Assembly (NCBI GenBank): GCA_934699525.1
Contig: CAKUWP010000001.1
Span: 132,384 to 196,383, forward strand
Length of the DNA: 64,000 nucleotides
Direction: 5' to 3'
Source of the DNA: an uncultured Bacilli bacterium
GTDB taxonomy: Bacteria; Bacillota_I; Bacilli_A; RFN20; CAG-826
Part shown: positions 1,900 through 45,905 of the stretch, one piece after another
How the letters are laid out: each line of letters begins with the position of its first letter
How positions within the stretch are numbered: position 1 is the first letter of the stretch
Translations under genes and position numbers: made by a program
Notes under the pieces: model-generated
Told to the model about the DNA's origin: nothing
The model's database searches: none
What the model saw: the letters and a program-made list of their open reading frames with translations, nothing else

Positions 1900-4291
1900 T
1901 TTTGTTCTCCTTCTTTTCTTTGTGGAAGTTTTTCAGCGCTTTAACGGGATGGTTGTTAACCAATCCTTCTAGGAGGAGGGCCAGTTCGTAAGTGAACAGG
2001 CCTCCGCTAGAGAAGCAAAGGGATCGAAGCGAGTTCGCTGGCATGAGGCGCCGGACGAAATTGCCGGCTTTCATCTCGGAAGCCCGCTTCACGGGGTCCT
2101 TGATTTTCTTACCTTTTTTGTATTGGAGTTCCCCTCCGAAATAGGAGGTGGCTTTGCGGAACATTTTGCCCATCCCCGTGCGATATTCCATCAATGGCGT
2201 TTCTAGGGTATAGGGCTTTTTGCCTGGGACATGGGGGCGATATTCCACTCCAATCCGCTTGCAGAATTCTTCATCGCTGATGCCAAGTTCTAGCGGCGCG
2301 TTGAAGTCTCCTTCTTCTCCATCGATCGATACTTCTTTTTGAAAGAGGGTCTCGACCACCGAGAAACCGCAATGGAAGAGGTATTGTCCTTTTTGCACGC
2401 TTAAGCGATCCTTGGACGCATCATAGGAAGAAAGACGTTCCAAGAGGCAATCCCATTCCACGGTCTTTTCTTCTTGAGGTTCCAAATAGACTTTTTGAAA
2501 GGAGACGAGTTCTTTTTTAGGCCCAACGCGAGGTTTGGTCGCATAGATTTGAAGAACCGTTTTTCCCTCCACGTGTCCCGCGTTTTTAATAGAAGCGGTG
2601 AAGTGAATCTTATTTTCTTCGGCTTTTGCTTCAAAAGAAGAAATTTCAAACGTCGTGTAGGAAAGCCCATACCCGAAGGGGTAACGGACTTTCTTATTCA
2701 CCGTTTCGTAATACCGGTAACCGCAATAGACCTCATCCTTATAATATTCAATCGGTGAGGACGTGAATTCTTTGGCCAAAGGAACATCTTCATAATGGAA
2801 GGGCCAAGTTTGAGCTAAGTGACCAGAGGGGTTTGCTTCACCAAAAAGGAGTTTGGTTCCCGCTTCTCCAACCCCTTCTCCCGCCGGGCCAAGGTTTAAG
2901 ATGGCCGTGACGGAATCGAGTCCATCCAGGTCCACCGGGGTACCCGTGGACATCATGAACACGACGGGCTTGCCGAGTTTTTGAAGCTCAAGAAGCAAAT
3001 GGAATTGATTCTCGGGCATGCGAAGAGAGGATTTATCAAAGCCTTCCGATTCATCGAAATCGCTTAAGCCGCCGAAGAAAACGATGACGTCTTTCTTTTT
3101 GGCGAGTTCTAGGGCTTCGGTTTCTTTTTTGGTATCCACTTTGTTTTCGCCATCTTCATAACCCGCGGCGAATTCATAGGAGACGTTCCTCTTCTTGAAA
3201 GCGTCTTCGAAGGTGGATAAGGCGTAAGGGGTAAGCATAGAAGAGCCCGATCCCTGGTAACGCATATGGGCGAAGAAATCGCCGATGACGGCAAGGGAGG
3301 ATTCTTTCTTTAACGGCAAGACGCCATGGTCATTTCGAAGCAAAACCGCTCCATCCACGGCAAGTTTCACCGCAAGTAAAGCATTGGTATCCAAAATCTC
3401 TTTGCCGACTTTTTCTTTCTTTTCGGTCCATTTTGCAACTTCTAGCATCGGAAGAATCGCTTCGTTGAGCTCTTCTTCTTTGAGGTTCCCCTGCTCGACC
3501 GCTTCGTGGACGATGCGGACATTATGGACAACACAGCCCGGCATTTCGAGGTTCAATCCATTCTTAAGGCCTTCGACCTTATCGTGAGTTCCGCCCCAAT
3601 CGGTCATGACTAAACCCCGGAAGCCAAATTCGTCGCGAAGTTTATCTTTCAATAAATAACCGTTTTCCGAGCAGAAGACATGATTGACTTGGTTATAGGC
3701 GGTCATCACCGAATAGGGATGGCCAATGCGAACCGCATAATCGAAGTTGCGGAGATAGATTTCGCTTAAGGCGCGTTTGGAAACGATGGAATCGCCGACG
3801 AAACGATATTTCTCGTTGCCGTTGCAGCAATAATGCTTTAAACAGGCGCCGGCTCCGCTACGTTGAACTCCAAGTGTGAAGTGGCCCGCGTAAAGACCAC
3901 TTAATAAAGGGTCTTCGGAATAATATTCGAAGTTTCTTCCGCATAAGGGGTTTCTTTGGATGTTAAGCGCAGGACCAAGCAATAAATCTACGCCAAAATA
4001 GGCGCATTCTTTGCCAATGGCCTCCCCCTCTAAATAGAAGTCTTCTTCGTCCCAGCTATTGGCAAGGCAGGATCCAACCGGGAAGACGCTTGTTGGTTGA
4101 GAATCGCTGACTCCAGAAAGGGAATCGCTTTTAACGTTGGGCATACGTAGACCCGAGGGGCCATCGCAAAGGAAAAGGGATCGGAAGGATCCTCTTTCCG
4201 CGGTGCGGTTGGGGCTCACTCCAGCGGTGAGCTGAGCTTTATCTTTCAAGCTAACCGAAGACAAAGCATTTTCTTTTTCTTGTTGGTCCAT
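1886..4291 (-). CDS. Glycoside hydrolase family 3 beta-glucosidase (801 aa)
   Basis: GH3 motifs [29 protein letters not shown]; C-terminal fibronectin-like region; 14-nt overlap with the downstream transporter start. Confidence 0.85.
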
Positions 4292-9128: not shown

Positions 9129-9629
9129 ATGGACTTTATTAGTAGTGATACCAGTGTCTGGATCGATTTTAAGGTGATCGATTGCGTTTCTTTCCCATTC
9201 AAGCTCCCCTACACCTACATCATGTTCAAAGAATCCATGGAATCGGAAATCCTAAGTCCGACCGGGTTTTTGGACGAACTTGTTGCCGCTGGACTAGTTG
9301 GGGTAGATATCACCATCGAAGAATTCCTTTTAGCGGATCGTTGGGGCAACGTCTACCCCAAACTATCCGTTCCAGATCGCATTGCCCTAGCCATTGCTAA
9401 ACAAAGAGACATCGTATTATTAACAGGAGATAAAGCATTAAGAAAAGCCGCGAGCCAAGAAGGGGTTCCAACACTTGGAACACTTGGAGTTTTAGACCGT
9501 CTTTTAAACGGGAACTATATTACTAAAGATGAATATCTGACCTGCATCGCATCTTTGAAGCAACATAATGGTTATGAAGTTCGCCTTCCGGCTGATGAGT
9601 TAGACAGACGTTTGAACAACGACAAATAG
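9129..9629 (+). CDS. PIN-like putative nuclease (DUF4411-like), partner of the XRE-ImmA gene
   Basis: Starts 3 nt after the upstream stop; PIN-like acidic residues (DTSVWIDF ... LLTGDKAL); 166 aa. Confidence 0.5.
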   Translation: MDFISSDTSVWIDFKVIDCVSFPFKLPYTYIMFKESMESEILSPTGFLDELVAAGLVGVDITIEEFLLADRWGNVYPKLSVPDRIALAIAKQRDIVLLTGDKALRKAASQEGVPTLGTLGVLDRLLNGNYITKDEYLTCIASLKQHNGYEVRLPADELDRRLNNDK

Positions 9630-31831: not shown

Positions 31832-33865
31832 TCAATATTCAACGTAGACCGGGGTGGCATAGAACGTGGCACTCGGATTTTCGGTCCAAGTATACAACCC
31901 GGTGGTAGACGCCAAAGTTGTAACCGATTCGCGTTTAGATTCCTGCATGGCTTGCGGAACAGAATCATGGGTAGCGGGAACAATGACGTTGAAGAAATCC
32001 GTCACGCAACGGAACGTGCCCGTATCATCCAAGCGAGTAAACTCGACATAATTCCAAATATCCAACCCATCGTTGGATGCGCGCAAGACATTGGTGCCGC
32101 CAGTCAGAGGGAAGCTGTCATGGGGAGAATCCGGTTTGCTAACAAGATTTTCCACTTTAATGAAGAAGGATGCGGTCTTAACTTTCTTGGCCGTGAGGTC
32201 AAAGGTATCATTCAAGATGTTCACGCTTGATCCAGAAATATATTTTTTATACACGGGCATTCCCAAGAAAGTTTCGGTTTGAAGCTCACCACCACCTATC
32301 AATGCGCTGTCAACGGCTTTTTGTTGATAATTGACGATTTTGCAATTCTTAATTTCGCCATTTGCTTTCGAAGAACGCACAATTTCAATTTTGGAAGGAT
32401 CACACCCCGCCGGAATTTTCACTGTGACATTTTCAAGCTTGGTGCCTTTTCCCATCGATCCTGCGACGCCAGCAATTTCATTGAGTTTAGTCGCGTCCAT
32501 CTGGGGAGCTAAGAAATAAGCGGTCGAATTCCGGATAACGCCCCCATTTTTAATTCCTTTGGTGAATGTGCCTGAATCGTCCCAAGTTTGGTATTTAAAC
32601 ATGGTGTGTGCTGCGACATTTTCAATCAATCCGCCATCTAAGGTGTCACAAATACCCGCCGCACTTAGTGAGTAGTGGTCGATATGAATCTGAGTTTCAA
32701 AATTTTTGATAACGCCCGACAACGTCCCAAACATTCCAGATTTATGAGCGTTGCATCGATTTAGGGTGTAAACTCGATGCCCTTTTCCATCCAAAACACC
32801 AGAGAATTTTTGGTTCGGGAATGTCGTTAATTGAATATCGTTCGCCAGATAATAGACGCCATTTTCTTCCATGGCGTGGAATTCTTCTTCGTTGCTAATA
32901 GGTGTGCCGGCTTTTTCGGTCGCGTTAAGGTGAATATAGGTATAACCAGTTTCCTTGACGCTTGTGTCGTACTGTCTGGCAACCGTGATGGAATAAACGC
33001 CAGACGCATCCGCGGTCAAGGTCTTGCGGCCCGCTTCCGCGCGGTCGCTAGAAACCGTGACGGTGTAGTCATATTGCTTAGCAAAGAACGGGTCAAGTTC
33101 GACTTTGAATTCGAGCTTTCCGCCGATAGGAGCAAGAGCCGGCAAGGTTTTGCCTTCTTTGTCCGTGAAGCGGAATCCATCCCGTTTCGCATTGGCCATG
33201 ATCTTCGAATATTCGTTATCCACGGCCGTGCAGGCATATTTATAGGTGATGCTCTTGAAGGAGAACGCGCCTTCGGTGGAGGTCAGCGTCGGATTGTTCG
33301 TTTCAATCCAGAATGCGCTGGGATCGTCGTTATCGCGGTTATTGGTCCAAACGTGATGGAGGTTCTCGTAACCGACTTTATCCGCTTCCGCCGCGGTGCT
33401 ATAAAGTCCGCGTCCTGCGCCGTCGCCGCGATTATTGATCACCTCAAACCAGGTGCGGATGCTTCCTGCATGAACGACCTTTTGGCTTGGTTTAGCCACC
33501 GTTAAGCCGTCGATCTCCATTTCGTAGAAAAGGGAGCCGCCGTTCGCGCCTTGATAGCCATTCGTGGATGTTCCACCACTTATAACAGCGCGTGTTAAGC
33601 TCGCGCCTTGCTTAAAGGTAATCACATCTCCCGTGACGGTCACATCCCCTGTCACACTAAAGGGGTTGCCATTTTTGGTGATGGTCTTGACTCCAGCCTT
33701 AAAATCGTCCGCGGTGAATGTGATCGCCATGGCTTTCGCACTCGGATAAGCCCCTTCGCCGAGAAGGCTGCTATTGCCTTGCCCGCTTAAAACCACGCTA
33801 ACACCAGCAAGAAGAAGGGAAAGGCCTGCGCCCCCAACCAACAAAAGATTTTGTTTTTTCTTCAT
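31832..33865 (-). CDS. Secreted/membrane-anchored beta-helix-like repeat protein (about 677 aa), paralog family A
   Basis: Start at MKKKQNLLLVGG; motif FSGVLDGKGHRVYTL; GGLIENVAA and GGVIRNS repeats; C-terminal tail YATPVYVEY. Confidence 0.65.
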   Translation of the reverse strand: MKKKQNLLLVGGAGLSLLLAGVSVVLSGQGNSSLLGEGAYPSAKAMAITFTADDFKAGVKTITKNGNPFSVTGDVTVTGDVITFKQGASLTRAVISGGTSTNGYQGANGGSLFYEMEIDGLTVAKPSQKVVHAGSIRTWFEVINNRGDGAGRGLYSTAAEADKVGYENLHHVWTNNRDNDDPSAFWIETNNPTLTSTEGAFSFKSITYKYACTAVDNEYSKIMANAKRDGFRFTDKEGKTLPALAPIGGKLEFKVELDPFFAKQYDYTVTVSSDRAEAGRKTLTADASGVYSITVARQYDTSVKETGYTYIHLNATEKAGTPISNEEEFHAMEENGVYYLANDIQLTTFPNQKFSGVLDGKGHRVYTLNRCNAHKSGMFGTLSGVIKNFETQIHIDHYSLSAAGICDTLDGGLIENVAAHTMFKYQTWDDSGTFTKGIKNGGVIRNSTAYFLAPQMDATKLNEIAGVAGSMGKGTKLENVTVKIPAGCDPSKIEIVRSSKANGEIKNCKIVNYQQKAVDSALIGGGELQTETFLGMPVYKKYISGSSVNILNDTFDLTAKKVKTASFFIKVENLVSKPDSPHDSFPLTGGTNVLRASNDGLDIWNYVEFTRLDDTGTFRCVTDFFNVIVPATHDSVPQAMQESKRESVTTLASTTGLYTWTENPSATFYATPVYVEY

Positions 33866-34182
33866 AGAAATCATCACTCCTTTCTCTTAAGTAAAAAGAT
33901 TTCTATCTTTGTAAGCGGTTACATTTTATAGGGCATCCCTACGTTCCTTAAACCTTCTTTCAAAACACTATTCAATGTTTTTGTTACATTATTAGGTTTT
34001 TTTCTCGTTTTTACGACACGGATTTGTCACACGTAGAGTCAAAAACAACCAAATAGGCTCGGATGTGGAAAAACAGGGTTTTGAATCACGAGCCATAAAA
34101 GATTGAAATGATGGTTTCGTAACAAAGATTGAATCGGATATTTTGCCTGTACTAAATACTATGCCCCTTTCGGTAAGACTCA

Positions 34183-34283
34183 TGTAAAAAGGTGCAATTA
34201 ATGAAGTCGAATAACCTGTAAAAAGGTGCAATTAATGGAGTTAAAAACTTGCAAAAAGGTGCAATTAATGAAAAAATACAATC
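34183..34283 (+). repeat. Three tandem 33-34-bp direct repeats (TG[T/C]AAAAAGGTGCAATTAATGRA...) ending at the ATPase start codon
   Basis: Units at about 34183, 34217 and 34250; each carries AAGGTG followed 7 nt later by ATG (micro-ORFs such as MKSNNL*). Confidence 0.85.
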
Positions 34284-35666
34284 ATGAAACGAAAATACTT
34301 AGCAGATTTAGAACGTTGGCTTACTGCCCCCGACCGTAAGCCTTTAATGGTTTGGGGGGCCCGACAAGTGGGAAAATCTTATTTAATTGAAGAACTATTC
34401 GCGAAAAAATATTTCCCCAATCGCTACCTGCGAATTGACTGCTCAGACGATACGACTTTTGTCGATTACGTTTTCTCTAATAGTAAATTGAACGATGTTC
34501 TGGCTTACATCGAATTGGCCTACGACTTTAAGGCGGACAAAGACCATCTTTTGATCTTTGACGAAGCCCAAGATTGTCTTCCCGTTGTCAAAATGATGAA
34601 GCATTTCTGTGAACAGCACCGGGAAATCCCCGTCATCGTCACAGGATCTTTGGTTCGGTTAAAAATCATGCGCGATGCCCATAAAAGAGGCCAATATGCG
34701 AAAGATACCAAATTTCTTTTCCCTGTAGGAAAAATCAACCAGCTCTACATCTATCCAATGACCTTCGATGAATTCCTGTTAAATGATAACCCCGGACTTT
34801 TGGATTACCTATCCACGCATTTTCAAAAGCAAATCCCCTTGGAACCCGTTATTCATCAAAAGGCTTTAGATGCCCTTCAAAATTATCTTTTTGTTGGAGG
34901 AATGCCGGAAGTCGTAGACACCTACTTGAAGAATAGGGAAAACGGCCCTCTTGGGCTACAAGCCGTCGCGGATAAATTGCAGGAAATTTATGACGACTAT
35001 CTTGCCGATATGGATTTATATCAGGCATCGCCAGAATCCATCATTCGAAGTCGCGCCGTCTATCGCGATATCTATCGCCAATTAAATAAAGAGAATAAGA
35101 ATTTCAAATTTTCTTTGGTTGAAAATAAAGCCAAAGGAAGGGATATGGCAAACCCCATCGCTTGGCTTGTAACCGCCAAAGTCGTCAACCAGTCCTTTTT
35201 ATTAAAAGAAAAGGCCACGACCCCTTTTGTAAAAGAGGAAGATTCCTTAACGCGCCTTTATTTATCCGATATGGGAATGTTCACTTATCAAAGTGGTTTA
35301 AACGTCAAAACGTTCTTAACCAATAAAAACAACGCTCTCTCTGGGATATATTTTGAAAATTATGTCGCCTGCGAATTAAGCGCAAGACGGATCGGTCTAT
35401 TCTATTGGAAAGGAAAAAGGGATTCCGAAATGGAATTCCTTCTCGATATCGACGGATGTCCCACCCCCATTGACGTTAAGAAAGGTCGAGGCAGTCTTAA
35501 TTCATTAAAGGGATTCCGCGCCCACAATAGCAATGGCCTGGCCATCAAGATTTCTAGCAATCAGTATGGTTATGATCAGGAAACCAACCTATTGACTTTA
35601 CCTCTTTATTATTTGTCTTTCTATTTGGATAAATTGCAAAAAGGTGCAATTAATGAAGTCGAATAG
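34284..35666 (+). CDS. COG1373-type AAA+ ATPase (AAA_14 plus DUF4143 architecture)
   Basis: Walker A GARQVGKSY, Walker B LLIFDEAQ, typical 460-aa length; paralog of 43230..44528. Confidence 0.8.
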   Translation: MKRKYLADLERWLTAPDRKPLMVWGARQVGKSYLIEELFAKKYFPNRYLRIDCSDDTTFVDYVFSNSKLNDVLAYIELAYDFKADKDHLLIFDEAQDCLPVVKMMKHFCEQHREIPVIVTGSLVRLKIMRDAHKRGQYAKDTKFLFPVGKINQLYIYPMTFDEFLLNDNPGLLDYLSTHFQKQIPLEPVIHQKALDALQNYLFVGGMPEVVDTYLKNRENGPLGLQAVADKLQEIYDDYLADMDLYQASPESIIRSRAVYRDIYRQLNKENKNFKFSLVENKAKGRDMANPIAWLVTAKVVNQSFLLKEKATTPFVKEEDSLTRLYLSDMGMFTYQSGLNVKTFLTNKNNALSGIYFENYVACELSARRIGLFYWKGKRDSEMEFLLDIDGCPTPIDVKKGRGSLNSLKGFRAHNSNGLAIKISSNQYGYDQETNLLTLPLYYLSFYLDKLQKGAINEVE

Positions 35667-35701
35667 CCTGTAAAAAGGTGCAATTAATGGAAATGAAAAG
35701 G
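35636..35701 (+). repeat. Two further copies of the 33-bp repeat, overlapping the last 10 codons and stop of the ATPase gene
   Basis: 35636-35693 matches 34183-34240 over about 57 bp with two mismatches; the repeat encodes ...KGAINEVE*. Confidence 0.85.
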
Positions 35702-35719
35702 TGGCGGAACCCCGCCACC
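35700..35719. terminator. Bidirectional terminator hairpin between the ATPase and the convergent lipoprotein gene
   Basis: GGTGGCGG-AACC-CCGCCACC, perfect 8-bp GC-rich stem. Confidence 0.55.
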
Positions 35720-35740
35720 AATTATTAGAAAGTGTGCTAA

Positions 35741-37432
35741 TTAGTAAGTGATGCCGCCACCGAGAGCGCTGACAGAAACGGTTTTGGTGAAGGTTTTCGG
35801 ATCTTCGTTTTCAAATTCCAATACCACATGGCCATCCACAAGTTTGAAGGAGGACAATGTAAAGGAACCCCAATCCACTTCGTTTCCTTCTTCGTCCATT
35901 TCGATGAAACTTCCTTCATCGGCCAAAGAGGCCTCGGTCGCGTTGTTCCAGGTAAATTTGTAGTAATAGGCGGTCATCATGCTGTCATAGTATTGAATCG
36001 TACCCGTCTTATCTTCCTTAAAGACAAGGGTCGATGCTGGATAGCCATCATCTTCCCAATTTCCTAGAAGCAACGAGGCGATGCCGCCCGTCGATTTGGC
36101 TTTGACAGTGAAAGTGTTGCTTGCAACGGCTTTGCTACCATCGGCTTTGCTTTGGGTCGAGGTGAAGGTCACCACGATCTTGCTGCCTGCAGCCGCATCT
36201 TCTTTGACTTGGAGGGTATATCCGTCCGCCGCGCTGCCGGTAAGGGTAGCGAATTCCGATCCGGAAGTGATTTCCGCGGTATAAAGATTTTTCGCTGTCG
36301 TGGGAAGGATCGTCGCGGAGAGGGAAACACTAGAACCCGCGACCACTTCTTTGTCTTCTTGGTTGAGGCTGATGCCGTTGATGGGCTTATCTTCCGTCAC
36401 GATGTGGAGGCTTCCACTAACCCCGTGGGCGGAAACGAAGGGGATGTCCACTTCGCCGGCTTTTAGGATCTTGAATTGATTCGTACGCGAATTGAAGAGA
36501 ACGAATTCGTTATCTTCTCCAATCGTTGAGACGATCGCATCTACAAGCGTCGAAGCTTTGGGGTTCTTAGCGGAAGCAAACTTCACCGCGTAGGAATTGT
36601 CGACCAAATAACGGCCGTCTTCGCTGACAAGGGTCGCTTGGATATCCTTGAAGCAGTAATTTTCTTCCAAAACCGCTTCCGGGTTTTCGACCTTGGCTCC
36701 TTCTTTCTTCCATTCGTAGGACGAGGAGGAAGTTGAAGTCGGCGTCGAATCCGCTTCGCTAGCGAAAGTCGAAGTCGTGGTGACGAGTTTTACGATGGCT
36801 TCATCGAGGATCGTCGCTTCGAATTTCTTTTCGACGGTGGCTCCTTCTTCTGTCACTTTTTCGGTCAACGTGAAGACATCGTTTTCATACGCATAAGTTT
36901 TGCCTTCTCCGCCTTTGACAAAGTCATCGAGGACAGCAAGGTTCGCGCTTAAACCATAGGCGTTATTGACCAAAAGAAGAGAGGTTTTTTGATGGAATTC
37001 TTTCTTCGTGGCATCGCTCATCTCAGTTTTAGCAAAATCGACGAGCGCGTCTCCTTCGAAACGGAATTCAAGGAAGGCGTTGTCTTCAATGGAACGGACG
37101 AGGGTGATGTTGCCCGGATTATGCTGAACCACTTGGTTTTTGAAAAAGGAAGCCGAGAAAACGTTTTCCCCTTCTTGGTATGCGGCGGAGGTCGCCAAAG
37201 GCTCATTGGCGATGGTGTTCTTCTTATAGGCTTCGAAATGGGCTTTGAAGCGTTCTTCCGCGGTTAGTCCCACCGTCGAGCTTGTCGAAGCGGAGGAAGA
37301 GGAGGAAACCGAGGTAGCGGAATCGCTAGTAGAAGGATTCGGCTTGGTTTCGCTGGAAGAGGGGTTTCCGCCCGTGCATCCCGCAAGAAGCAAAAGGGAG
37401 GAAAGCAGCAAAAGGGATGGTTTTTTATTCAT
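35741..37432 (-). CDS. Large lipoprotein with a Ser/Thr-rich linker (563 aa), unknown function, paralog family B
   Basis: Lipobox LLLAGCTG followed by an S/T-rich low-complexity region. Confidence 0.65.
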   Translation of the reverse strand: MNKKPSLLLLSSLLLLAGCTGGNPSSSETKPNPSTSDSATSVSSSSSASTSSTVGLTAEERFKAHFEAYKKNTIANEPLATSAAYQEGENVFSASFFKNQVVQHNPGNITLVRSIEDNAFLEFRFEGDALVDFAKTEMSDATKKEFHQKTSLLLVNNAYGLSANLAVLDDFVKGGEGKTYAYENDVFTLTEKVTEEGATVEKKFEATILDEAIVKLVTTTSTFASEADSTPTSTSSSSYEWKKEGAKVENPEAVLEENYCFKDIQATLVSEDGRYLVDNSYAVKFASAKNPKASTLVDAIVSTIGEDNEFVLFNSRTNQFKILKAGEVDIPFVSAHGVSGSLHIVTEDKPINGISLNQEDKEVVAGSSVSLSATILPTTAKNLYTAEITSGSEFATLTGSAADGYTLQVKEDAAAGSKIVVTFTSTQSKADGSKAVASNTFTVKAKSTGGIASLLLGNWEDDGYPASTLVFKEDKTGTIQYYDSMMTAYYYKFTWNNATEASLADEGSFIEMDEEGNEVDWGSFTLSSFKLVDGHVVLEFENEDPKTFTKTVSVSALGGGITY

Positions 37433-37438
37433 TTTTCA

Positions 37439-39388
37439 TTACTCCATCGGCGTTAGGCCATTGATCAAAAGCGTCAAATTCGGAGCGAGGGAAGCGGTGC
37501 CATAATCCTTGAAACTGATTTGATCATAACCCGTCACAGATCCCTGCCCGTATTCAGAGGGGGCCTCGTATCGATAATTGATATTAAGCACGCGCGAATT
37601 TTCGTCAAGTTGCATCGTGAGGGTGCTCGGAATCATATAAGCTCCGCCTTCTCCCATGATGAGGGTATCCGCGACGGAAAGGACTTCCGGCTTCGGGACG
37701 ATTTGGTTTTTGGAATTGATGTTGAAGATAAGCGGGGAGGCCGAGAAACCGATATGGTTATCCAGGGTATCGCCTTCGATGCATTTACCACTGGTGACGG
37801 CGACCAAACGATTTGATGTCGCATCACGACTCACGTTGAAGGGGATGACTTTGCCGTCTTTTTCCACGAACCCGTGGCGTTTGGAAACTTCCGTAGTCAC
37901 AGGGTTATAGACTTCAAAATAGAGAATGTTGTTCGTTAAAGTCATGCGGGTGACGCTAGAAGCAAGGGAGCCATAATCTTCGATCGTAGCCACATAAGAG
38001 GAGCCTTGCTTTAGGCCTTTAAACGCATTCTCGATCTTCTTTTGGTTGGCATCGTCTGCCTTGGCTTCATAAGGGGCAGGGCGAGTGAAATTGGCTTTGG
38101 AATCAAAGGTGGTCTTCACCGTGTAATAGAAATAGGAGGAATCGGAGTCGGAGACCGAGCGATAGAAGGTGGCGTCCATTTCCTGCATGACTCCATTTTC
38201 CACGACGAGATCCAACGTCTTAATCGCCATATCGAAGTTGACGTAGGAATAGGAATAGAAGAATCCTTCCGCGTCTAAGCCCAAATAACGATAGGTGTTG
38301 TCTTTGATTTTACGGAAAGCCTTCGCGGAGAAGATATCCTTCGGCCATTCAAGTTCCTTCCATTGGATGTCTTTGCCCTCTTCGGCGCTATTTTCCACAA
38401 TGACTTCGTTATGGCCGTTGATGCCGATGATTTTGGCTGCGCCATTTTGGTTTTCAAAGAAATGGGCGTAGATCTGTTCGCTGCCCTTTTCTTGGCTGCG
38501 GACGCTAAGCTGCGTGGAAGAGATGCCAACGTCGCTAACGGCATATTCCACCGGTTCTTCATTTCCTTCGTGGAGAGAAATGACGTTATGGGCGGAAAGG
38601 GTTTCGCTTTGGAGGACCTTCGCCGCGTCTTCGCTTAAGGATTCCCCGCTAGCATAGGAGGAACGGAACGCTTCGATGGCTTCGAGTTTGGAGCAATCCA
38701 CGTTCGAGAAAGTGGCCTTGGTGATGACCGCTTCTTTGTAGTCCCCATTGGAATCCATGCTCAGCGCATTGATGGTAAAGGCGAGGTCACCATTTTCCAA
38801 AATGGAGAAGGTCGTATCTTGGATTAAATTATTTTGGGCCAAAGAGATATAGCCAACGGAAGCGCAGAAAACGAGGTTTGCCATTGCGCTGTCCGTATAG
38901 AAAGATCCATCCGCGGCTTCTTTAATCGCACCGCTTTTGAGGTTATAACGGCTTTGAGTTTTGTCCGTGAACAGGGAGAAATAGCTGATTTCGTTGACGG
39001 AGCTCACGTAGGTTCCGCTGCTGGTCTCGGGGAGAAGGATGTCCACGTTATTTTGGTTTAAGTCAAAGCGATAAAGGATGTCCTCATCTTCTTTTTCCAC
39101 GTAGGGGAGAAGCATTCCACCACTTTGAAGGATGGAAGCGTAATAGTAGTCTTTGTTGAACAAGTCAAAGCATTCCACCCCTTCCATCGAATAGGAGAGG
39201 GTGTAATCACCGTGATTGGCCACATAGATCAAATAGTCGTAGATATATTCCGCGTCCTTTTCGCGGTCCTTCATATCCTCGTAGAAATGGGATCCCGAGG
39301 AGGAGGAATCTTGGGGTTTATCGGTGTTGCCACATCCTGCTAGAAGCAAAGGAAGGATGAGGGGAATGATGTATTTAAATTTTTTCAT
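37439..39388 (-). CDS. Large lipoprotein (649 aa), unknown function, paralog family B
   Basis: Lipobox LLLAGCGN; a shared block (DNTYRYLGLDAEGFFYSYSY...VVENGVMQEMDATFY) aligns with the 39407 protein (GNGRYRYIGSNPFSVFYG...VSNGALTNIEVKF). Confidence 0.65.
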   Translation of the reverse strand: MKKFKYIIPLILPLLLAGCGNTDKPQDSSSSGSHFYEDMKDREKDAEYIYDYLIYVANHGDYTLSYSMEGVECFDLFNKDYYYASILQSGGMLLPYVEKEDEDILYRFDLNQNNVDILLPETSSGTYVSSVNEISYFSLFTDKTQSRYNLKSGAIKEAADGSFYTDSAMANLVFCASVGYISLAQNNLIQDTTFSILENGDLAFTINALSMDSNGDYKEAVITKATFSNVDCSKLEAIEAFRSSYASGESLSEDAAKVLQSETLSAHNVISLHEGNEEPVEYAVSDVGISSTQLSVRSQEKGSEQIYAHFFENQNGAAKIIGINGHNEVIVENSAEEGKDIQWKELEWPKDIFSAKAFRKIKDNTYRYLGLDAEGFFYSYSYVNFDMAIKTLDLVVENGVMQEMDATFYRSVSDSDSSYFYYTVKTTFDSKANFTRPAPYEAKADDANQKKIENAFKGLKQGSSYVATIEDYGSLASSVTRMTLTNNILYFEVYNPVTTEVSKRHGFVEKDGKVIPFNVSRDATSNRLVAVTSGKCIEGDTLDNHIGFSASPLIFNINSKNQIVPKPEVLSVADTLIMGEGGAYMIPSTLTMQLDENSRVLNINYRYEAPSEYGQGSVTGYDQISFKDYGTASLAPNLTLLINGLTPME

Positions 39389-39406
39389 AATCGCGTATTC
39401 CTTTCA

Positions 39407-41779
39407 TTAATCCGGGATATAAAGGTCGATGCCGACTTTGGGGTTCTCCCCAATCGTGATACCCAAGGTATAAACCCCGCCTTCGAGGACGTAATAGGTC
39501 TTTTTGCCGTTAGAATCTTTGCCTTCGACAATGCCAGGAATCGCACGGACCTTTTCTTCGAAGCGGCTCATGTAATGGGTCGGGTCCTCGAATTCCACAT
39601 AGGTATCCGGTTGATAGATCTGCACGTGGGTCGGCTTGTTGTTAACGATGTTGGTCGTGATGGCGTACCACCCGTCGAAGAGGGTCGGCTCATAGACGTA
39701 GGGGATGAGTTTGGCCGTAGATTCGCCGAAGAAGGAAAGCAAGGTCGGATAGACGTTTTCTTCCATTTCCCAGGTGGAGGGGGCGGAGAAGGTCGTGAGT
39801 TCTTGCACCTTGGCAGCAAGGTTGGCGTCCACTTCGATTTCATCGTCGCCAAGCCCCACGAATTCGCCGATTTCTTCGCCTTTGGACTGGCCGTTATTGT
39901 ATTCATAACGGTAGCTATAGCTGATTGGTTTCTTCGAGACGTTATTTTTGTAGAAGATATGGAACGTCATCGGACGAACGTTGTCGAGGTGTTGGAAGCC
40001 TTGGATAGAGGAAGTCAAATCATAAATCGGGGTGCGGAGGTTATAGGCAACCTGGGATTCGATGACGGTTTTCTTGAGGACGTCCGGGGAAAGGTTCATG
40101 TTGAGAACATCTTCCAGGGTTTTGTCTTCCGGTTCGGACAAAGCGAACACGTCGTCTTGGCTCGTGTAAAGGAACTGGACGAGTTTGTTCTCCTTGTTCA
40201 TGGCATAGCCGATGCGCTTGGAAGAATATTCCGTCGTAGAGCCGGGTTTCAAAGTCTTTTCTTCACGAAGCAAGTAACGGCTTCCTTCCACATTGGAATA
40301 AGTGAGATAAGCCGCGGAAGAGGGGTCATTTGCATTGTAAAGTTTCAATTGGAACGAGCCTTTGAAATAGGAGAGGGTTTTGGCGATGTCGTCATGAGAA
40401 CCATCTTCTGACGGGGCAAGTGGGGCAGGCATGGCGATCTTTGCGCCTTCTTGGACCGTGATGTGAGCAGCGTACCAATCCTTGGAATAAAAATTCGTCG
40501 GGTCGGTATAGGAATTGAATTTGACTTCGATGTTGGTGAGGGCCCCGTTAGAAACGGAGAAATCGATGAATTCGACATCTTGATTGCCCAAGGATTTAGC
40601 AAGGGTCAAGCCATAGAACACGGAGAAGGGGTTCGAGCCGATATAACGATAACGGCCATTGCCAACCTTCATGAGATTGCTGGCCTTGAGGATATCTTTC
40701 AAATAAACGTAGGAAGACCAATTTTGCCCCGTCGGCTTGCTTTCGACCTTGTTGGAACCGGAGAGATAGACTTCGTGAGAGGCGTCTCCTTGTTTTTGGT
40801 AATAATGGTCATCGTAATAATGGTCATCATGGCCAAAGGTATGGTGAATCTTATCGAGATCCATCGCGACGACGTTGGTTCCTTCGTCATTACCCCATTC
40901 TTCGCTGTCTCGGTGTTCCCAGATTTCCGCGGTGAAGGTATAGGCGTCTTTTTGAAGAGCCGGAAGGGCTGCTTCTTCCACCATATTCACGGAGGAGGGG
41001 TTCTTGAAATAGGCCTCTTCCGCGCTTGCAGAGGCCGAATTCAAATCCGAGAAGGTGCCCTTGGCGTAATCGGTGAAGGTGAAGCCATCGGTGGAACGGA
41101 CGAGAACAAAGGAAAGATCCCCGTTATTTTCTAGGGAAAGCGTCGCGTAAACGAATTGTTCGCTGGCCGCGCGTTCCTTGAGGTTCAAAAGGCAAGCAAG
41201 CGAATAGACGAGGCCAAAATCATTGACCACGTATTCGTCGACGTTCATCAAAAAATCGTCTTTGGTGAAAGTGCCTTTGCCATCTTTTCCAACGTAATCG
41301 GACAAAAGATTGAACGACGATAAATCCGTTAAGGGGGCATAGGCGTCCCCATTTAATTTCGAATCGATGGAAAGCAGTTCTAACGTTTTTCCCGTATTAT
41401 CGAATTCGTAGGAAGAGGTCTTCGACGGATCCTCAAAATTCGGACGGAGGATGTGGCTTAGTCCTTTGCTTTCGAGACGAATATAAGAACCAAAGCAATA
41501 GGTGTCTTCAAACGAGGGCTCATCTTCTTCGTTCGTCAGCGAGACTTTGCTGAGGCGATAGGATTTCGCCTCAACAATCTCATTGAATTTCTTGGCAAGA
41601 ATCTCTTTGTTGATTGGGAGTTTCGGCTGCTCCGAAGAGCCGTTAGAGGTCGAATTAGACTCTGTCCCAGTGGAGGAAGAGGCGGTGTCATTGCTATTTC
41701 CACCAGCCCCGCAAGAAGCAAGTAGCGTCGCCGCGGAAAGCAAGAGGATGGAAGCGCGTGTTAATTTTTTTCTATTCAT
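39407..41779 (-). CDS. Large lipoprotein (790 aa), unknown function, paralog family B
   Basis: Lipobox LLASCGAG plus an S/T/N-rich linker; similarity block with 37439. Confidence 0.65.
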   Translation of the reverse strand: MNRKKLTRASILLLSAATLLASCGAGGNSNDTASSSTGTESNSTSNGSSEQPKLPINKEILAKKFNEIVEAKSYRLSKVSLTNEEDEPSFEDTYCFGSYIRLESKGLSHILRPNFEDPSKTSSYEFDNTGKTLELLSIDSKLNGDAYAPLTDLSSFNLLSDYVGKDGKGTFTKDDFLMNVDEYVVNDFGLVYSLACLLNLKERAASEQFVYATLSLENNGDLSFVLVRSTDGFTFTDYAKGTFSDLNSASASAEEAYFKNPSSVNMVEEAALPALQKDAYTFTAEIWEHRDSEEWGNDEGTNVVAMDLDKIHHTFGHDDHYYDDHYYQKQGDASHEVYLSGSNKVESKPTGQNWSSYVYLKDILKASNLMKVGNGRYRYIGSNPFSVFYGLTLAKSLGNQDVEFIDFSVSNGALTNIEVKFNSYTDPTNFYSKDWYAAHITVQEGAKIAMPAPLAPSEDGSHDDIAKTLSYFKGSFQLKLYNANDPSSAAYLTYSNVEGSRYLLREEKTLKPGSTTEYSSKRIGYAMNKENKLVQFLYTSQDDVFALSEPEDKTLEDVLNMNLSPDVLKKTVIESQVAYNLRTPIYDLTSSIQGFQHLDNVRPMTFHIFYKNNVSKKPISYSYRYEYNNGQSKGEEIGEFVGLGDDEIEVDANLAAKVQELTTFSAPSTWEMEENVYPTLLSFFGESTAKLIPYVYEPTLFDGWYAITTNIVNNKPTHVQIYQPDTYVEFEDPTHYMSRFEEKVRAIPGIVEGKDSNGKKTYYVLEGGVYTLGITIGENPKVGIDLYIPD

Positions 41780-42948: not shown

Positions 42949-43108
42949 GGGTTTCCCCTCTTTTTTCCGTGAAGTCCGAAAAAGTGTAATTTCACTATCG
43001 TTTTTTGCATTTTTCTTGACTTCATTTTGCCCGATTTTCACACTTTTTCGAAGTTAACTGAAAGGAAAGAGAAAAACATCCGATGTATTGCCAACATTTA
43101 AGTTAAGT

Positions 43109-43219
43109 ACATTTTTGGTTGGTTCTAACCGAATTTGTACTTAGATATTGCTTTCAGCATTAGAGAAATTAAAATAGTTATATACAATTTTGGTTGGTTC
43201 TAACCGAATTTGTACCTAG
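43109..43219 (+). repeat. Two 36-bp direct repeats (ACAWTTTTGGTTGGTTCTAACCGAATTTGTACYTAG) 75 bp apart, the second ending at the RBS of the ATPase gene
   Basis: Copies at about 43109-43144 and 43184-43219; each contains the inverted element GGTT-CT-AACC. Confidence 0.8.
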
Positions 43220-43229
43220 GAGATTTGAA

Positions 43230-44528
43230 ATGGTGTTTGCCAGAAAACGTTACTTGGATCAATTAACCGCCTCAATCGGCAATGGAATGATCAAGGTCAT
43301 CACGGGGCCAAGGCGTTCGGGAAAATCTTACTTGTTGTTTACAATTTTTCGAGATTGGTTACTTCATTCCGGCGTTCAAGAAGATCATATTTTGTGCCTG
43401 AAATTAGACCAGCAAAGCAATGCTCGTTATCGGAACCTTGACGAATTTGTTTCTTTTTTCAAATCTCAACGCAAAACCGACGGAAAATCCGCCTATTTTC
43501 TCATTGATGAAATTCAATTGGTCGCATCCAAAGAGAACCCTTGGGTTCAAGGTCAATTTCTAACCTTTTACGACGCCCTGAACGAATTTCTGGGTTGGGA
43601 CAATATAGAAGTCTTCGTTACGGGCAGCAATTCCCACATGCTCTCTAGCGATATCGCAACCGAATTTCGCGGACGCGATTGGCAAATTCCGATGTATCCA
43701 TTGTCCTATTCCGAAATTCGAGAACAAACCGATTCGAACATCAACGACTTCACGTTATGGGACCTTTACTGGAAATACGGGGGATTGCCCGCCTGCGTTT
43801 TGGAATCCGACGAATCGAAAAAGCAGCAATATCTTAAGCAAATTTTTTCCACCACTTATTTAAAGGATATTGTGGAACGGTACCATCTTCGCGACGACAT
43901 TATTTTAGAGAACCTCGTTGCTTATTTAGCTTCTTCCGTTGGTTCCGTCCTCAATCCCACCAACATCTCCAACACCTTTAAAAGCAAAATGCACATAACA
44001 GTTGCCCCGGCCACCATTCGTCGCTACATCACCTATCTTAATGACGCCTTTGTCATTTCCGACGCTCAACGGTTTGATCTTAAAGGAAAAGCCATTATCA
44101 ACGGGTCTAGCAAATATTTCTTTAACGACATGGGGCTTCGAAACGCCGCCGCCCATTTTTTAGGTCAAGACCAAGAACCCCACTTCATGGAAAACATCAT
44201 CTATAACGAATTGGTTCTTCGTGGATTTATGGTTCAGGTTGGATCCATTACAAGCACGGAAAACGTTAAGGGGAAACCAACAAAGGTAACGAGAGAGGTA
44301 GACTTCGTTGCAACCAAGAACGGAAGGAAATTCTATATTCAATCGGCTTTCCTTATCGATAATCCCGCCAAGCTTCAGCAAGAAAAAGAATCTTTCCGAA
44401 AAATCGACGATTCCTTCACTCGCGTTATTATCAGCAAATTCACTTCCGGCGCATCCTACGATGAAGACGGCGTGTTGCGCCTCGGCTTGTTCGATTTCTT
44501 GCTCAACAAGTCCAACATCATCGATTGA
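43230..44528 (+). CDS. COG1373-type AAA+ ATPase (AAA_14 plus DUF4143), second paralog
   Basis: Start refined to MVFARKRYLDQL (AGGAG RBS); Walker A GPRRSGKSY, Walker B YFLIDEIQ. Confidence 0.8.
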   Translation: MVFARKRYLDQLTASIGNGMIKVITGPRRSGKSYLLFTIFRDWLLHSGVQEDHILCLKLDQQSNARYRNLDEFVSFFKSQRKTDGKSAYFLIDEIQLVASKENPWVQGQFLTFYDALNEFLGWDNIEVFVTGSNSHMLSSDIATEFRGRDWQIPMYPLSYSEIREQTDSNINDFTLWDLYWKYGGLPACVLESDESKKQQYLKQIFSTTYLKDIVERYHLRDDIILENLVAYLASSVGSVLNPTNISNTFKSKMHITVAPATIRRYITYLNDAFVISDAQRFDLKGKAIINGSSKYFFNDMGLRNAAAHFLGQDQEPHFMENIIYNELVLRGFMVQVGSITSTENVKGKPTKVTREVDFVATKNGRKFYIQSAFLIDNPAKLQQEKESFRKIDDSFTRVIISKFTSGASYDEDGVLRLGLFDFLLNKSNIID

Positions 44529-44533
44529 TTAAA

Positions 44534-44566
44534 AGTTCCATTTTTGGAACTATTTCGTCGCATTTT
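44534..44566 (+). terminator. Hairpin terminator after the second ATPase gene
   Basis: AGTTCCA-TTTTT-TGGAACT followed by ATTTCGTCGCATTTT. Confidence 0.5.
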
Positions 44567-44623
44567 AGAATAATTTCTAAAGTTTTATTCCCACTTTTGG
44601 AACTTTTACCATACAATATAGCC

Positions 44624-45283
44624 ATGAAAAAAAGAATAACTCTATTCCATGGCTCTGATCACGTCATCGATTCCCCCGTTTTCGGGGGAGGATCCCCAAA
44701 AAACGATTATGGGTTTGGATTTTATTGCACCCTGGAAGAGAAAGCCGCCAAAGTTTGGGCCAACCGAAACGGAGGGCCGGGATACGTCAATCAATACGAG
44801 ATCGACGTTTCTTCGCTGCAAATCTTAGATTTAACCGCCCCCTCTTTTGATGCTATGTACTGGATTTCCCTTCTCCTTCAGCACCGCAGTTTGGACGATA
44901 CCGATCGAAGAAAATACAAAACTCTTTTGGAAGACCTCTTTCGAACTTATCCCGTTTCCATTGATGGCGTCGATCTCATCATCGGGTATCGTGCCGATGA
45001 CCGATATTTTCGTTATTGCAAAGATTTTTTGTCCAGCCAATTGGATTACGATTCCCTAACAAAAGCATTAAAGCTAGGAAAATTAGGGATTCAATACGTT
45101 CTGCTTTCGCCAAAAGCCTTCCAAAACATTCATTTTATACGCGCTGAAAAAATTGGAGAGGATTATCTCCGCTCCTATTCTCAACTCATGGAAAAAACTA
45201 ACGACGAATATCAGATAATCATGGAGGGCGCCGATCAAAGAAACGGCCTCTTCATCCGGGACATGTTATATGGAAAACGTTAA
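44624..45283 (+). CDS. DUF3990-like protein (about 220 aa)
   Basis: Start at MKKRITLFHGSDHVIDSPVFGGGSPKNDYGFGFYCT (DUF3990-type LYHGS...DYG.GFYC N-terminus). TACAAT lies 6 nt upstream of the ATG, so the transcript is possibly leaderless. The ORF overlaps the next ORF by 14 nt. Confidence 0.55.
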   Translation: MKKRITLFHGSDHVIDSPVFGGGSPKNDYGFGFYCTLEEKAAKVWANRNGGPGYVNQYEIDVSSLQILDLTAPSFDAMYWISLLLQHRSLDDTDRRKYKTLLEDLFRTYPVSIDGVDLIIGYRADDRYFRYCKDFLSSQLDYDSLTKALKLGKLGIQYVLLSPKAFQNIHFIRAEKIGEDYLRSYSQLMEKTNDEYQIIMEGADQRNGLFIRDMLYGKR

Positions 45284-45905
45284 ACTGCTAACTTCCGAAA
45301 TCAAAGAACGTCTCGCTTCTTTTTTCGAAATGTGCTTATCCCAAGAAGCCATTCCCATTGATTTGCTAGAAGAAAAGCTTGCTTGGGCCGAGCCTTTTCA
45401 ACTTTTGGAAAGAGGCGATGCCACCAGTTTATTAACTGGCACGGTCAGCGATTTATTTCATCGCGTGTTTCAAACTCACGAAACGCCAAATCAATATCTG
45501 ACTGATTCTCGTTTTTATTGGGCAGGACAAATATACGCCACCATCTTTTTGGAAGAAGGGGCGTCCCTTTATCGCATTTCTCTATTGCTCCCCTTGCGTG
45601 AAATGAAAGATCTTTTTCTCCCTTATCACGAGATGGACGACACTCAAATCGTGCAATTGTATCGAAAGCGTGAAAAGGAAAAAAGCGTTTTGGAAGTCCT
45701 CAAAAAGAAAAGCGGACTTTCCTATGTAGAAATGGTAAAAAAGACAGAAATTCCAAAAACCAATCTTTTCCGATTAAAAGACAACAAGAATCTCCAACGC
45801 ATCGGATTAGACGAAGCGAATCAATTAAGCCAAATCCTTCATTGTCCCATCACGGTTTTTCTCAGCCAAGTGCTTTTATCATCATTTTCGAAATATTCTC
45901 GATAA
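45270..45905 (+). CDS. HTH-containing protein, possibly DUF3791-like plus an XRE-type HTH; translationally coupled partner of the DUF3990 gene
   Basis: C-terminal HTH (LSYVEMVKKTEIPKTNLFRLKDNKNLQRIGLDEANQLSQIL); a middle segment (LFLPYHEMDDTQIVQLY) resembles the DUF3791 core. Confidence 0.5.
   Translation: MENVKLLTSEIKERLASFFEMCLSQEAIPIDLLEEKLAWAEPFQLLERGDATSLLTGTVSDLFHRVFQTHETPNQYLTDSRFYWAGQIYATIFLEEGASLYRISLLLPLREMKDLFLPYHEMDDTQIVQLYRKREKEKSVLEVLKKKSGLSYVEMVKKTEIPKTNLFRLKDNKNLQRIGLDEANQLSQILHCPITVFLSQVLLSSFSKYSR

Follow-up and report, generated by a model that had tools for sequence, protein, structure and literature searches.

Why is a single ATPase gene of an uncultured gut Bacilli bacterium bracketed on both sides by the same short tandem repeats? 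We addressed this question in a 64-kb stretch of contig CAKUWP010000001.1 (hereafter the window, W), in which the gene (34284-35666, plus strand) encodes a 460-aa protein of the COG1373 family with AAA_14 and DUF4143 domains, classified as PDC-S01 in PADLOC by profile searches and characterized with a structure model. The first-pass annotation had taken the repeats for the footprint of insertion, duplication or site-specific recombination of a single-gene cassette. We favor a different reading, to which we give about an even chance: the repeat units would be iteron-like binding sites that form the promoter and operator of a self-contained single-gene cassette, and they would probably be bound by the ATPase itself. 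L-numbers designate the loci or contigs of relatives compared with the window.

Repeat units at the ATPase gene and their conservation

The window was searched for the 18-mer AAAAAGGTGCAATTAATG, first exactly and then with up to 3 mismatches, using 100 shuffles as a control. Five exact matches were found in the 64 kb, all at the ATPase gene: three upstream (34186, 34220 and 34253) and two at its 3' end (35638 and 35672). The chance expectation was 0.16, none of the 100 shuffles reached five copies, and no further copy with up to 3 mismatches occurred elsewhere in the window. The 57-bp direct repeat said to flank the gene is real, with 2 mismatches across that stretch, and extends to 65 nt at 92% identity (34183-34247 versus 35635-35699).

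The matches mark five units on the plus strand with a conserved core of about 22 nt and periods of 34, 33 and 34 nt. Their tandem organization had been recognized, but the unit had been put at about 33 bp, a spacing that occurs only once. U1 (34183-34204, TGTAAAAAGGTGCAATTAATGA) and U2 (34217-34238, TGTAAAAAGGTGCAATTAATGG), both delimited by unit search and repeat comparison, are followed by the promoter-proximal unit U3 (34249-34271). The third upstream copy had been placed up against the start codon, which is wrong, as the U3 core ends at 34270, 13 nt ahead of the ATPase ATG at 34284. Downstream, D1 (35635-35656) is translated in frame as LQKGAIN; the open reading frame (ORF) runs ...LDKLQKGAINEVE-TAG through this unit, as had been described, and stops 10 nt past it (TAG, 35664-35666). 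D2 (35669-35690), located by unit search, is non-coding. A GC-rich hairpin on the minus strand (35700-35719), the terminator of the convergent gene for a 563-aa protein, marks the right edge of the cassette. Furthermore, U1 and its spacer AGTCGAATAACC are a copy of D1 that includes the stop codon. The description of this upstream copy as remaining in the coding frame and ending in TAA holds for the terminal TAA, but overlooked that U1 reads ATG TAA... in that frame, with an additional stop at the Gln position.

A scan for AAAAAGGTGCAATTAATG across one genome per species returned 76 loci. About half of them are single matches in unrelated taxa that look like chance hits; the others, with units in tandem, lie in gut metagenome-assembled genomes (MAGs) that carry the labels Bacilli, Erysipelotrichaceae, Bacillales or Mollicutes. 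A full bracket of 2-4 units, a 1.38-kb gene and 2 more units was found in W, L018, L019, L020, L073, L086, L097, L107 and L072+L023. Arrays with a 34-bp period thus bracket homologous genes in at least nine gut Bacilli lineages, and the repeat is not restricted to the window. The 34-nt period is kept throughout these lineages, and 1382-1385 nt separate the last 5' unit from the first 3' unit.

The gene bodies are only 58-74% identical between bracket lineages, whereas the 40 unit cores are 97.5% identical to their consensus. Furthermore, the seven tail codons CAA AAA GGT GCA ATT AAT GAA are each represented by one codon in the 10 lineages compared, in which the 30 codons ahead of the tail show free synonymous variation. 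The constraint therefore acts on the DNA, and the protein tail is a by-product of a DNA element.

These observations bear on the idea that the repeat is a relic without present function, left by a tandem gene duplication or by the 3' end of a neighboring gene. A relic would account for the copying of the coding tail and its stop into U1, for the decay of the tail in many homologues, and for the sequence past the last 3' unit in the J/L097 group, which resembles the ATPase leader and the first two bases of the start. However, it fits poorly with the conservation of the unit cores relative to the gene bodies, with the fixed codon usage of the tail, and with four units that remained unchanged at a synonymous divergence (dS) of about 0.7 in one relative of the window. 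Moreover, judging from established requirements of recombination, identity tracts of about 22 nt would in most lineages be too short for gene conversion alone to homogenize the copies. We consider a neutral relic very unlikely.

Of the 120 closest protein clusters, 76 lack the tail or have it in decayed form. Homologues with 60-63% identity (L111, L113 and L115) or about 47% identity (L032 and L081) have 3 or 4 tandem units upstream and none downstream, and some upstream units of this set carry the variant core GGTGTAAATTG. As the distant homologues keep only the upstream array, this array is ancestral in the clade, and the 3' pair was added later, in the subclade with the LQKGAI tail. The repeat is therefore not primarily the footprint of an insertion, as had been supposed, but a conserved array of cis-elements that homologues lacking the 3' copy retain upstream.

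Units also occur in other arrangements. In L054, an ATPase gene at 1925-3256 encoding a 48% identical homologue has three inverted units (AAATTGCAC-TTTTT) upstream of its promoter at a spacing of about 34 nt, on the minus strand of the locus as oriented here; this orientation fits a binding site. Members of a very distantly related COG1373 subfamily (407 aa, about 21% identity) have 1-2 units about 100 nt upstream of the gene in L038 (6027), L048 (6695-6746), L050 (876-927) and L065 (7603-7654), and a degenerate unit lies at about 7270 in L097. A conserved 79-aa ORF ends inside the first unit in L048, L050 and L065; its interpretation as a decayed ATPase was rejected, as its segments lack collinearity with the ATPase and NCBIfam gave no match. 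Unit arrays with ATPase homologues were also seen in L036, a bin labelled Bacteroidaceae, and in L032, a MAG labelled Acutalibacteraceae, which reflects either cross-lineage transfer or mis-binning.

Predicted promoter geometry and the candidate binding protein

At the start of the gene, a -35-like TTGCAA (34249-34254) is followed by a 17-nt spacer (34255-34271) that includes TG at 34269-34270, by the -10-like hexamer AAAAAT (34272-34277, plus strand), and, after 6 nt, by the ATG. U3 thus contains the TTGCAA, the spacer and the TG. The same geometry, TTGCAA and 17 nt ending in TGn, then the -10, 6 nt and ATG, was found in 10 of the 13 lineages compared, and the -10 is TATAAT in L019. With a -10-like hexamer 6 nt before the ATG, transcription would be expected to start at the A of the ATG, and the ATPase mRNA is therefore probably leaderless. 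A leaderless mRNA would explain the absence of a Shine-Dalgarno sequence, which had been pointed out before and which we found to hold for the 13 nt preceding the ATG.

If the units form an operator, U3 would provide the -35-like element, the spacer and the TG of an extended -10, with the -10-like hexamer next to it. The overlap between the array and the promoter points to autorepression: occupancy of the array by the product of the cassette would shut off the promoter. The 3' pair would then be a second cluster that cooperates with the first by looping or oligomerization, and the last 10 codons of the ORF would come from the first 3' unit as a by-product. The 3' pair is under selection, and its role, whether looping, cooperative loading or a roadblock, is a guess.

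The upstream region had also been proposed to act on translation, by attenuation or coupling, with ribosomes loading at AAGGTG-N7-ATG in the units and controlling synthesis of the ATPase. Both micro-ORFs behind this proposal exist, MKSNNL and a 23-codon ORF out of the ATPase frame, and AAGGTG-N7-ATG is present in every unit; in L111, the AAGGTG of the last unit is positioned 8 nt ahead of the actual start codon, where it would act as a Shine-Dalgarno sequence. However, the micro-ORFs vary in length between 2 and 34 codons and have no sequence in common, making a leader-peptide mechanism unlikely. Furthermore, the units lie upstream of the predicted -10 in 10 of the 13 lineages and would not be transcribed from the predicted promoter, and the 23-codon ORF extends about 50 nt into the ATPase ORF before it stops, an overlap ill-suited to termination-reinitiation. 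As a leaderless mRNA accounts better for the missing Shine-Dalgarno sequence, control by micro-ORFs appears extremely unlikely. A programmed frameshift from the U3 ATG through the A-run was dropped because the A-run is absent in other lineages, and no Rfam family matched 33000-36500, L082 or L023.

The protein itself belongs to the family to which it had been assigned. Its AAA_14 domain (67.8 bits, E = 1.2e-18) and its C-terminal DUF4143 domain (52 bits) both score above the Pfam gathering scores of 27 and 28.1 bits, respectively, and DUF4143 has been assigned to the PD-(D/E)xK superfamily (PMC3424549). The PDC-S01 profile PDLC04786 is matched over its full length, covering residues 1-447 (E = 3.3e-104), and through this match we take the proposed association of the gene family with defence islands to hold. 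PDC-S01, an ATPase fused to a PD-(D/E)xK domain (PMC12988326, PMC3424549), has been reported as a very abundant, experimentally unvalidated defence candidate (PMC12988326), and PDC-S01/COG1373 genes as being among the most abundant putative prokaryotic defence genes (PMC12988326, PMC13356809). The ATPase has the same architecture, but PDC-S01 is defined by the protein alone and without demonstrated activity; the searchable literature contained no description of flanking repeat arrays, an operator or a leaderless promoter for it. In the 48 homologues used to assess residue conservation, the Walker A residues G25, A26, R27, Q28, G30 and K31 and the Walker B residues D93 and E94 are invariant, as are E382 and E384 of the nuclease motif, and D397 and K399 are nearly so.

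An AlphaFold model of the ATPase (pLDDT 87, pTM 0.89), in which the last six residues are disordered, comprises an AAA+ module and a C-terminal alpha/beta domain, with a winged helix at about residues 270-330. The best Foldseek match is the archaeal AAA+ ATPase 2fna (E = 9e-8). ORC4/5, Cdc6/Orc1, RFC and DnaA come next (ORC4/5, Cdc6/Orc1 and DnaA at E = 1e-6 to 1e-4), and TnsC is among the weaker matches. The predicted fold is thus an ORC/Cdc6-like AAA+ domain with a winged helix and a PD-(D/E)xK nuclease domain. As the TM-scores are low (0.2-0.44), the likeness to initiators in the model is a resemblance of fold class only. No sequence match to Cdc6, ORC or DnaA was found in Pfam, NCBIfam or the PDB, and no solved structure matched the ATPase by sequence.

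Tandem direct repeats adjoining a gene for an initiator-like AAA+ winged-helix protein could also indicate an integrated mini-replicon or a replication origin, with iterons bound by the ORC-like initiator. No GC-skew switch was found at the locus, however, and the replication origin was rejected for lack of a skew signal. Moreover, family profile searches returned neither a Rep nor an initiator family, the protein has a nuclease domain, and blastn against 72,556 plasmid records and against phage records gave no match. An iteron-controlled replicon would share the tandem repeats beside an initiator-like gene; its Rep family, extrachromosomal copies and origin signature were not found here. We therefore hold a replicon for highly implausible.

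The next question is which protein would bind the units. As the arrays travel with the cassette between hosts (see below), the binder must be either common to all hosts or encoded by the cassette, and the ATPase, the only protein encoded by the cassette and one with an initiator-type fold, is the most economical candidate. The favored reading accordingly has the ORC/Cdc6-like AAA+ winged-helix PD-(D/E)xK product as the putative binder. A weak lead in this direction comes from two lineages with the unit variant GTAAATTG instead of GCAATTAATG, which also differ in the putative recognition helix (about residues 284-297 of the window's ATPase; NPYFW/NPLFW versus PIxW); this pairing of sequence variants points to the ATPase as the binder but may simply reflect relatedness. 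The units could instead be operators for a trans-acting host regulator, or a feature recognized by the host RNA polymerase common to these Bacilli, with no part for the ATPase. The conservation of the units and their overlap with the promoter suit that explanation equally. However, the exact unit occurs at 1-2 loci per reference genome, always at a COG1373 gene or a gene-less module, the arrays move between diverged hosts together with the cassette, and no regulator gene was consistently adjacent at the loci examined. We consider a host-encoded binder unlikely.

Several points weigh against the operator reading that we favor. We regard the anatomy, the constraint on the DNA, the polymorphism and the horizontal transfer as shown; protein binding, the ATPase as the binder, repression and the leaderless transcript are steps that we infer. 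The -10 of the window, AAAAAT, is weak, and a generic promoter scan made no call there, the score being 8 of 12. An operator at the 3' end, at a distance of 1.4 kb, is unusual, and the role given to it is a guess. As the 3' tail has decayed in many homologues, some lineages can do without the 3' array. The link between recognition helix and unit variant is based on two lineages. Lastly, autoregulation alone leaves the arrival of the cassette in unrelated contexts unexplained.

Recombination between units and movement of the cassette

The cassette is present at the same place in nine relatives (L119, L120, L122, L123, L070, L078, L080, L088 and L090), among which L070 (92% identical over 8 kb) and L078 (90%) belong to the window's own lineage. 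L031 is the only relative at the window locus without the gene: its left flank leads into a single unit and then into the same terminator hairpin. L031 thus lacks exactly the gene and keeps one unit at a syntenic locus, and the view of the gene as a discrete single-gene cassette is supported. The neighboring 649-aa protein is about 95% identical among all lineages with the window locus, L031 included, which means that L031 is no obvious outgroup; the most parsimonious explanation is that it lost the gene by unit-by-unit recombination. At the window locus, the ATPase has a dN/dS (ratio of nonsynonymous to synonymous divergence) of 0.03-0.09 and a dS close to that of its neighbor, indicating vertical inheritance under purifying selection.

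Unit number is polymorphic. It varies between 2 and 4 among relatives, the upstream array at the window locus having 2 or 3 units, and from 1 to 4 across sites. U1 is missing in three of the nine relatives (L119, L080 and L123) and present in L120/L070, L122, L078, L090 and L088. As U1 copies the coding tail and its stop and is absent in some relatives, the 57-bp repeat is specific to certain lineages and stems from exchange between the 3' array and the 5' array, and the suggestion of duplication and deletion at this site holds to that extent. In L123, where dS is about 0.7 and the left intergenic flank is unalignable, all four units are perfect. All contigs with an identical ATPase or an identical neighbor protein have the same arrangement, and polymorphism among contigs with the exact allele of the window was therefore rejected.

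Some alleles at this locus are disrupted. The ATPase alleles of L080 (553-1919) and L088 (420-1782) have frame-breaking deletions of 13 and 17 nt, respectively, between perfect flanking units. In L082 (1900-2597), whose contig matches the window at 90% identity, a degenerate third unit precedes a perfect TATAAT, after which come an unrelated GC-rich hairpin-forming sequence and a C-terminal fragment of an IS200-type Y1 transposase (29.5 bits). An insertion sequence probably landed in the promoter array of L082, the contig of which has low coverage and ends there.

Gene-less modules occur at other sites as well. The site that is occupied in L097, L107 and L072+L023 has gene-less counterparts in L045 (1 unit), L054 (3 units) and L060 (2 units), and L087 matches the L019/L073 type. 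The gene-less units of L054 read as the first upstream unit followed by the two downstream units, including the ATTATTG variant of the coding unit, which is the composition expected from recombination between the second upstream and the first downstream unit. In L029, the last 24 codons and three units remain. The gene-less modules retain flanks specific to the cassette, namely the left terminator hairpin and 25-60 nt on the right, and are therefore deletion scars rather than naive targets.

We propose that unequal recombination between units would alter their number, that it would have copied a 3' unit into the 5' array and so created the 57-65-bp repeat of the window, and that it would occasionally delete the gene, leaving a unit-only scar, and possibly amplify it. 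Deletion or amplification between direct repeats, RecA-dependent or by slippage, is a familiar process, and the gene-less sites show the composition of unit exchange. Unlike the repeats usually involved in direct-repeat deletion, however, these units are under strong selection and are not accidental.

Beyond these local changes, the cassette has moved. L107 and L097 share a cassette that is 89% identical between adjacent serine dehydratase and peptidase M18 genes that are 68% identical. Furthermore, the cassette of L072+L023 is 92.5% identical to that of L107, and the cassettes of L019 and L073 are 89% identical; in both pairs nothing else is common, even at the protein level. With cassette identity far above that of the flanks, and with cassettes about 90% identical in unrelated contexts, the cassette has been transferred or relocated, in line with the movement proposed earlier. 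Whole cassettes have thus been transferred horizontally, and under the operator reading such exchange would take place among gut Bacilli.

Movement of this kind could also reflect self-mobilization. The arrays would then be recombination or recognition sites, the AAA+/PD-(D/E)xK protein would drive excision, duplication, integration or homing, and the gene-less modules would be non-autonomous derivatives. The 89-92% identical cassettes in unrelated contexts agree with this, as do the excess of cassette identity over the flanking genes in L107/L097, the intact units at the unit-only sites L031, L045, L054, L060 and L087, the (nearly) invariant nuclease residues, TnsC among the weaker fold matches, and the location of several sites directly after tRNA genes. 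However, the segment that cassettes share extends beyond the units by 59 nt on the left and 67-85 nt on the right, which means that the units are not the ends of the cassette, and gene-less modules with outer cassette segments are scars of internal deletion. Inverted repeats between the ends of modules reach 6-7 nt at best, a length equalled in 14-41% of shuffles. In addition, tail-less homologues have 5' arrays without 3' arrays, the dS of the gene tracks that of its neighbor at the window locus, each protein cluster examined sits at one locus across all samples, and plasmid and phage records gave no matches. Self-mobilization is the main rival, kept alive by the transfers and the nuclease domain, and we consider it unlikely. 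Its most specific form is an autonomous single-gene mobile element in which the ORC-like protein recognizes the arrays at both ends and the gene-less modules of about 0.2 kb (hairpin, units and tail) are non-autonomous derivatives; to this we assign a small probability.

The genes called up to 10 kb to the left and right of the window cassette include no recombinase. No inverted repeats were found in 33500-36300, and no recombinase or mobile-element genes near the cassettes of the compared loci, whose neighbors are housekeeping genes. Site-specific recombination, another part of the initial interpretation, is thus not borne out: there is no recombinase, no attC-like inverted repeat and no significant terminal inverted repeat. 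The transposon hallmarks looked for were absent, as terminal inverted repeats are not significant and the ATPase is the sole gene (target-site duplications were not searched for separately). Covarying 7-mers at the module ends, considered as terminal inverted repeats, did no better than shuffles, and viral-contig matches were single and chance-like. A circular 9.6-kb element with L072 and L023 as its ends was also rejected, as these are adjacent 8-kb blocks of one linear contig. The ~1.45-kb contigs on which many homologues are found were dropped as evidence for circles; they are uninformative, since repeats on both sides of a gene interrupt de Bruijn assembly in any case.

Unit arrays are frequently located a short distance downstream of tRNA genes (His, Gly, a Pro-Arg-Met-Ala cluster and Pro, in L045, L054, L072, L107, L019 and L037). 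The same terminator hairpin stands between the tRNA gene and the units in L045, L054, L072 and L107, and about 66 nt between the tRNA and the first unit are identical in L045 (after tRNA-His) and L054 (after tRNA-Gly). A tRNA-targeting island would carry an integrase and a copy of the tRNA 3' end at its right boundary; neither was found, the alignments at that boundary being read by eye. To the right of the cassette, a small direct repeat, CATTTAnnGCGTACA, occurs twice with a 32-nt period in L107 (5410-5475) and L023 (contig positions about 9380-9443), and gene-less L045 and L054 have a single hybrid copy of it.

Relation to known systems and neighboring genes

The cassette lacks the features that define integron cassettes, transposons, tRNA-targeting integrative islands and replicons. 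It resembles integron cassettes and pdif modules in being a single-gene module with repeated bounding sites that is present or absent at a fixed position, but its repeats are direct and tandem, it has its own promoter-like geometry, and no attC- or XerC/D-type inverted-repeat site and no nearby integrase were found. Closer parallels come from arrays at promoters. In DnaA autoregulation and at archaeal orc1/cdc6 genes beside an origin, arrays adjoin the genes of AAA+ initiators; these iteron, DnaA-box and origin recognition box (ORB) arrays share with the cassette the tandem repeats at the promoter of a gene for an AAA+ winged-helix protein of initiator fold. The cassette differs from them in its 34-nt period, in the second array inside the 3' end of the ORF, in the nuclease domain of its protein and in that no evidence of replication was found. 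As an analogy only, the partition arrays parC of R1 and sopC of F likewise consist of phased direct repeats that precede an NTPase operon and contain its promoter. In plasmid partition, the array is occupied by a DNA-binding protein from the same operon, which thereby represses it; the repeats of F sopC are 43 bp long. The protein families are different, however, and the cassette is chromosomal and has no gene for a partner adaptor.

The clade provides a testable handle on this family, with a 22-bp motif that is more constrained than the codons of the protein and phased arrays on both sides of the gene. If the ATPase binds the units, they would be the first specific DNA ligand of the family and would give its regulatory logic, and repeat-mediated loss, gain and amplification would explain the fast turnover of such genes. 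If the protein mobilizes its own cassette, a new mechanism of transposition or homing would be at work.

The immediate neighbors of the ATPase gene have no family hits. On the minus strand, 35741-41779 contains three large tandem ORFs (563, 649 and 790 aa) without Pfam hits; the 563-aa protein is mosaic and fast-evolving in close relatives (75-97% identity), and the adjacent 649-aa protein is 95-98% identical. A second ATPase of PDC-S01 type, with AAA_14 and DUF4143 domains (43194-44528, 444 aa), lies 7.5 kb away. An unrelated 44-nt direct repeat, AGTTAAGTACATTTTTGGTTGGTTCTAACCGAATTTGTACTTAG, which is internally palindromic, occurs twice upstream of this paralogue (43101-43219), 75 nt apart, and is present as a single copy in L080; promoter-proximal repeats may be a general habit of the COG1373/PDC-S01 family. 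Directly after the second ATPase, 44525-45905 contains a DUF3990 gene and an overlapping 211-aa ORF without family hit, which together with this ATPase may form a small defence or toxin-antitoxin-like cluster.

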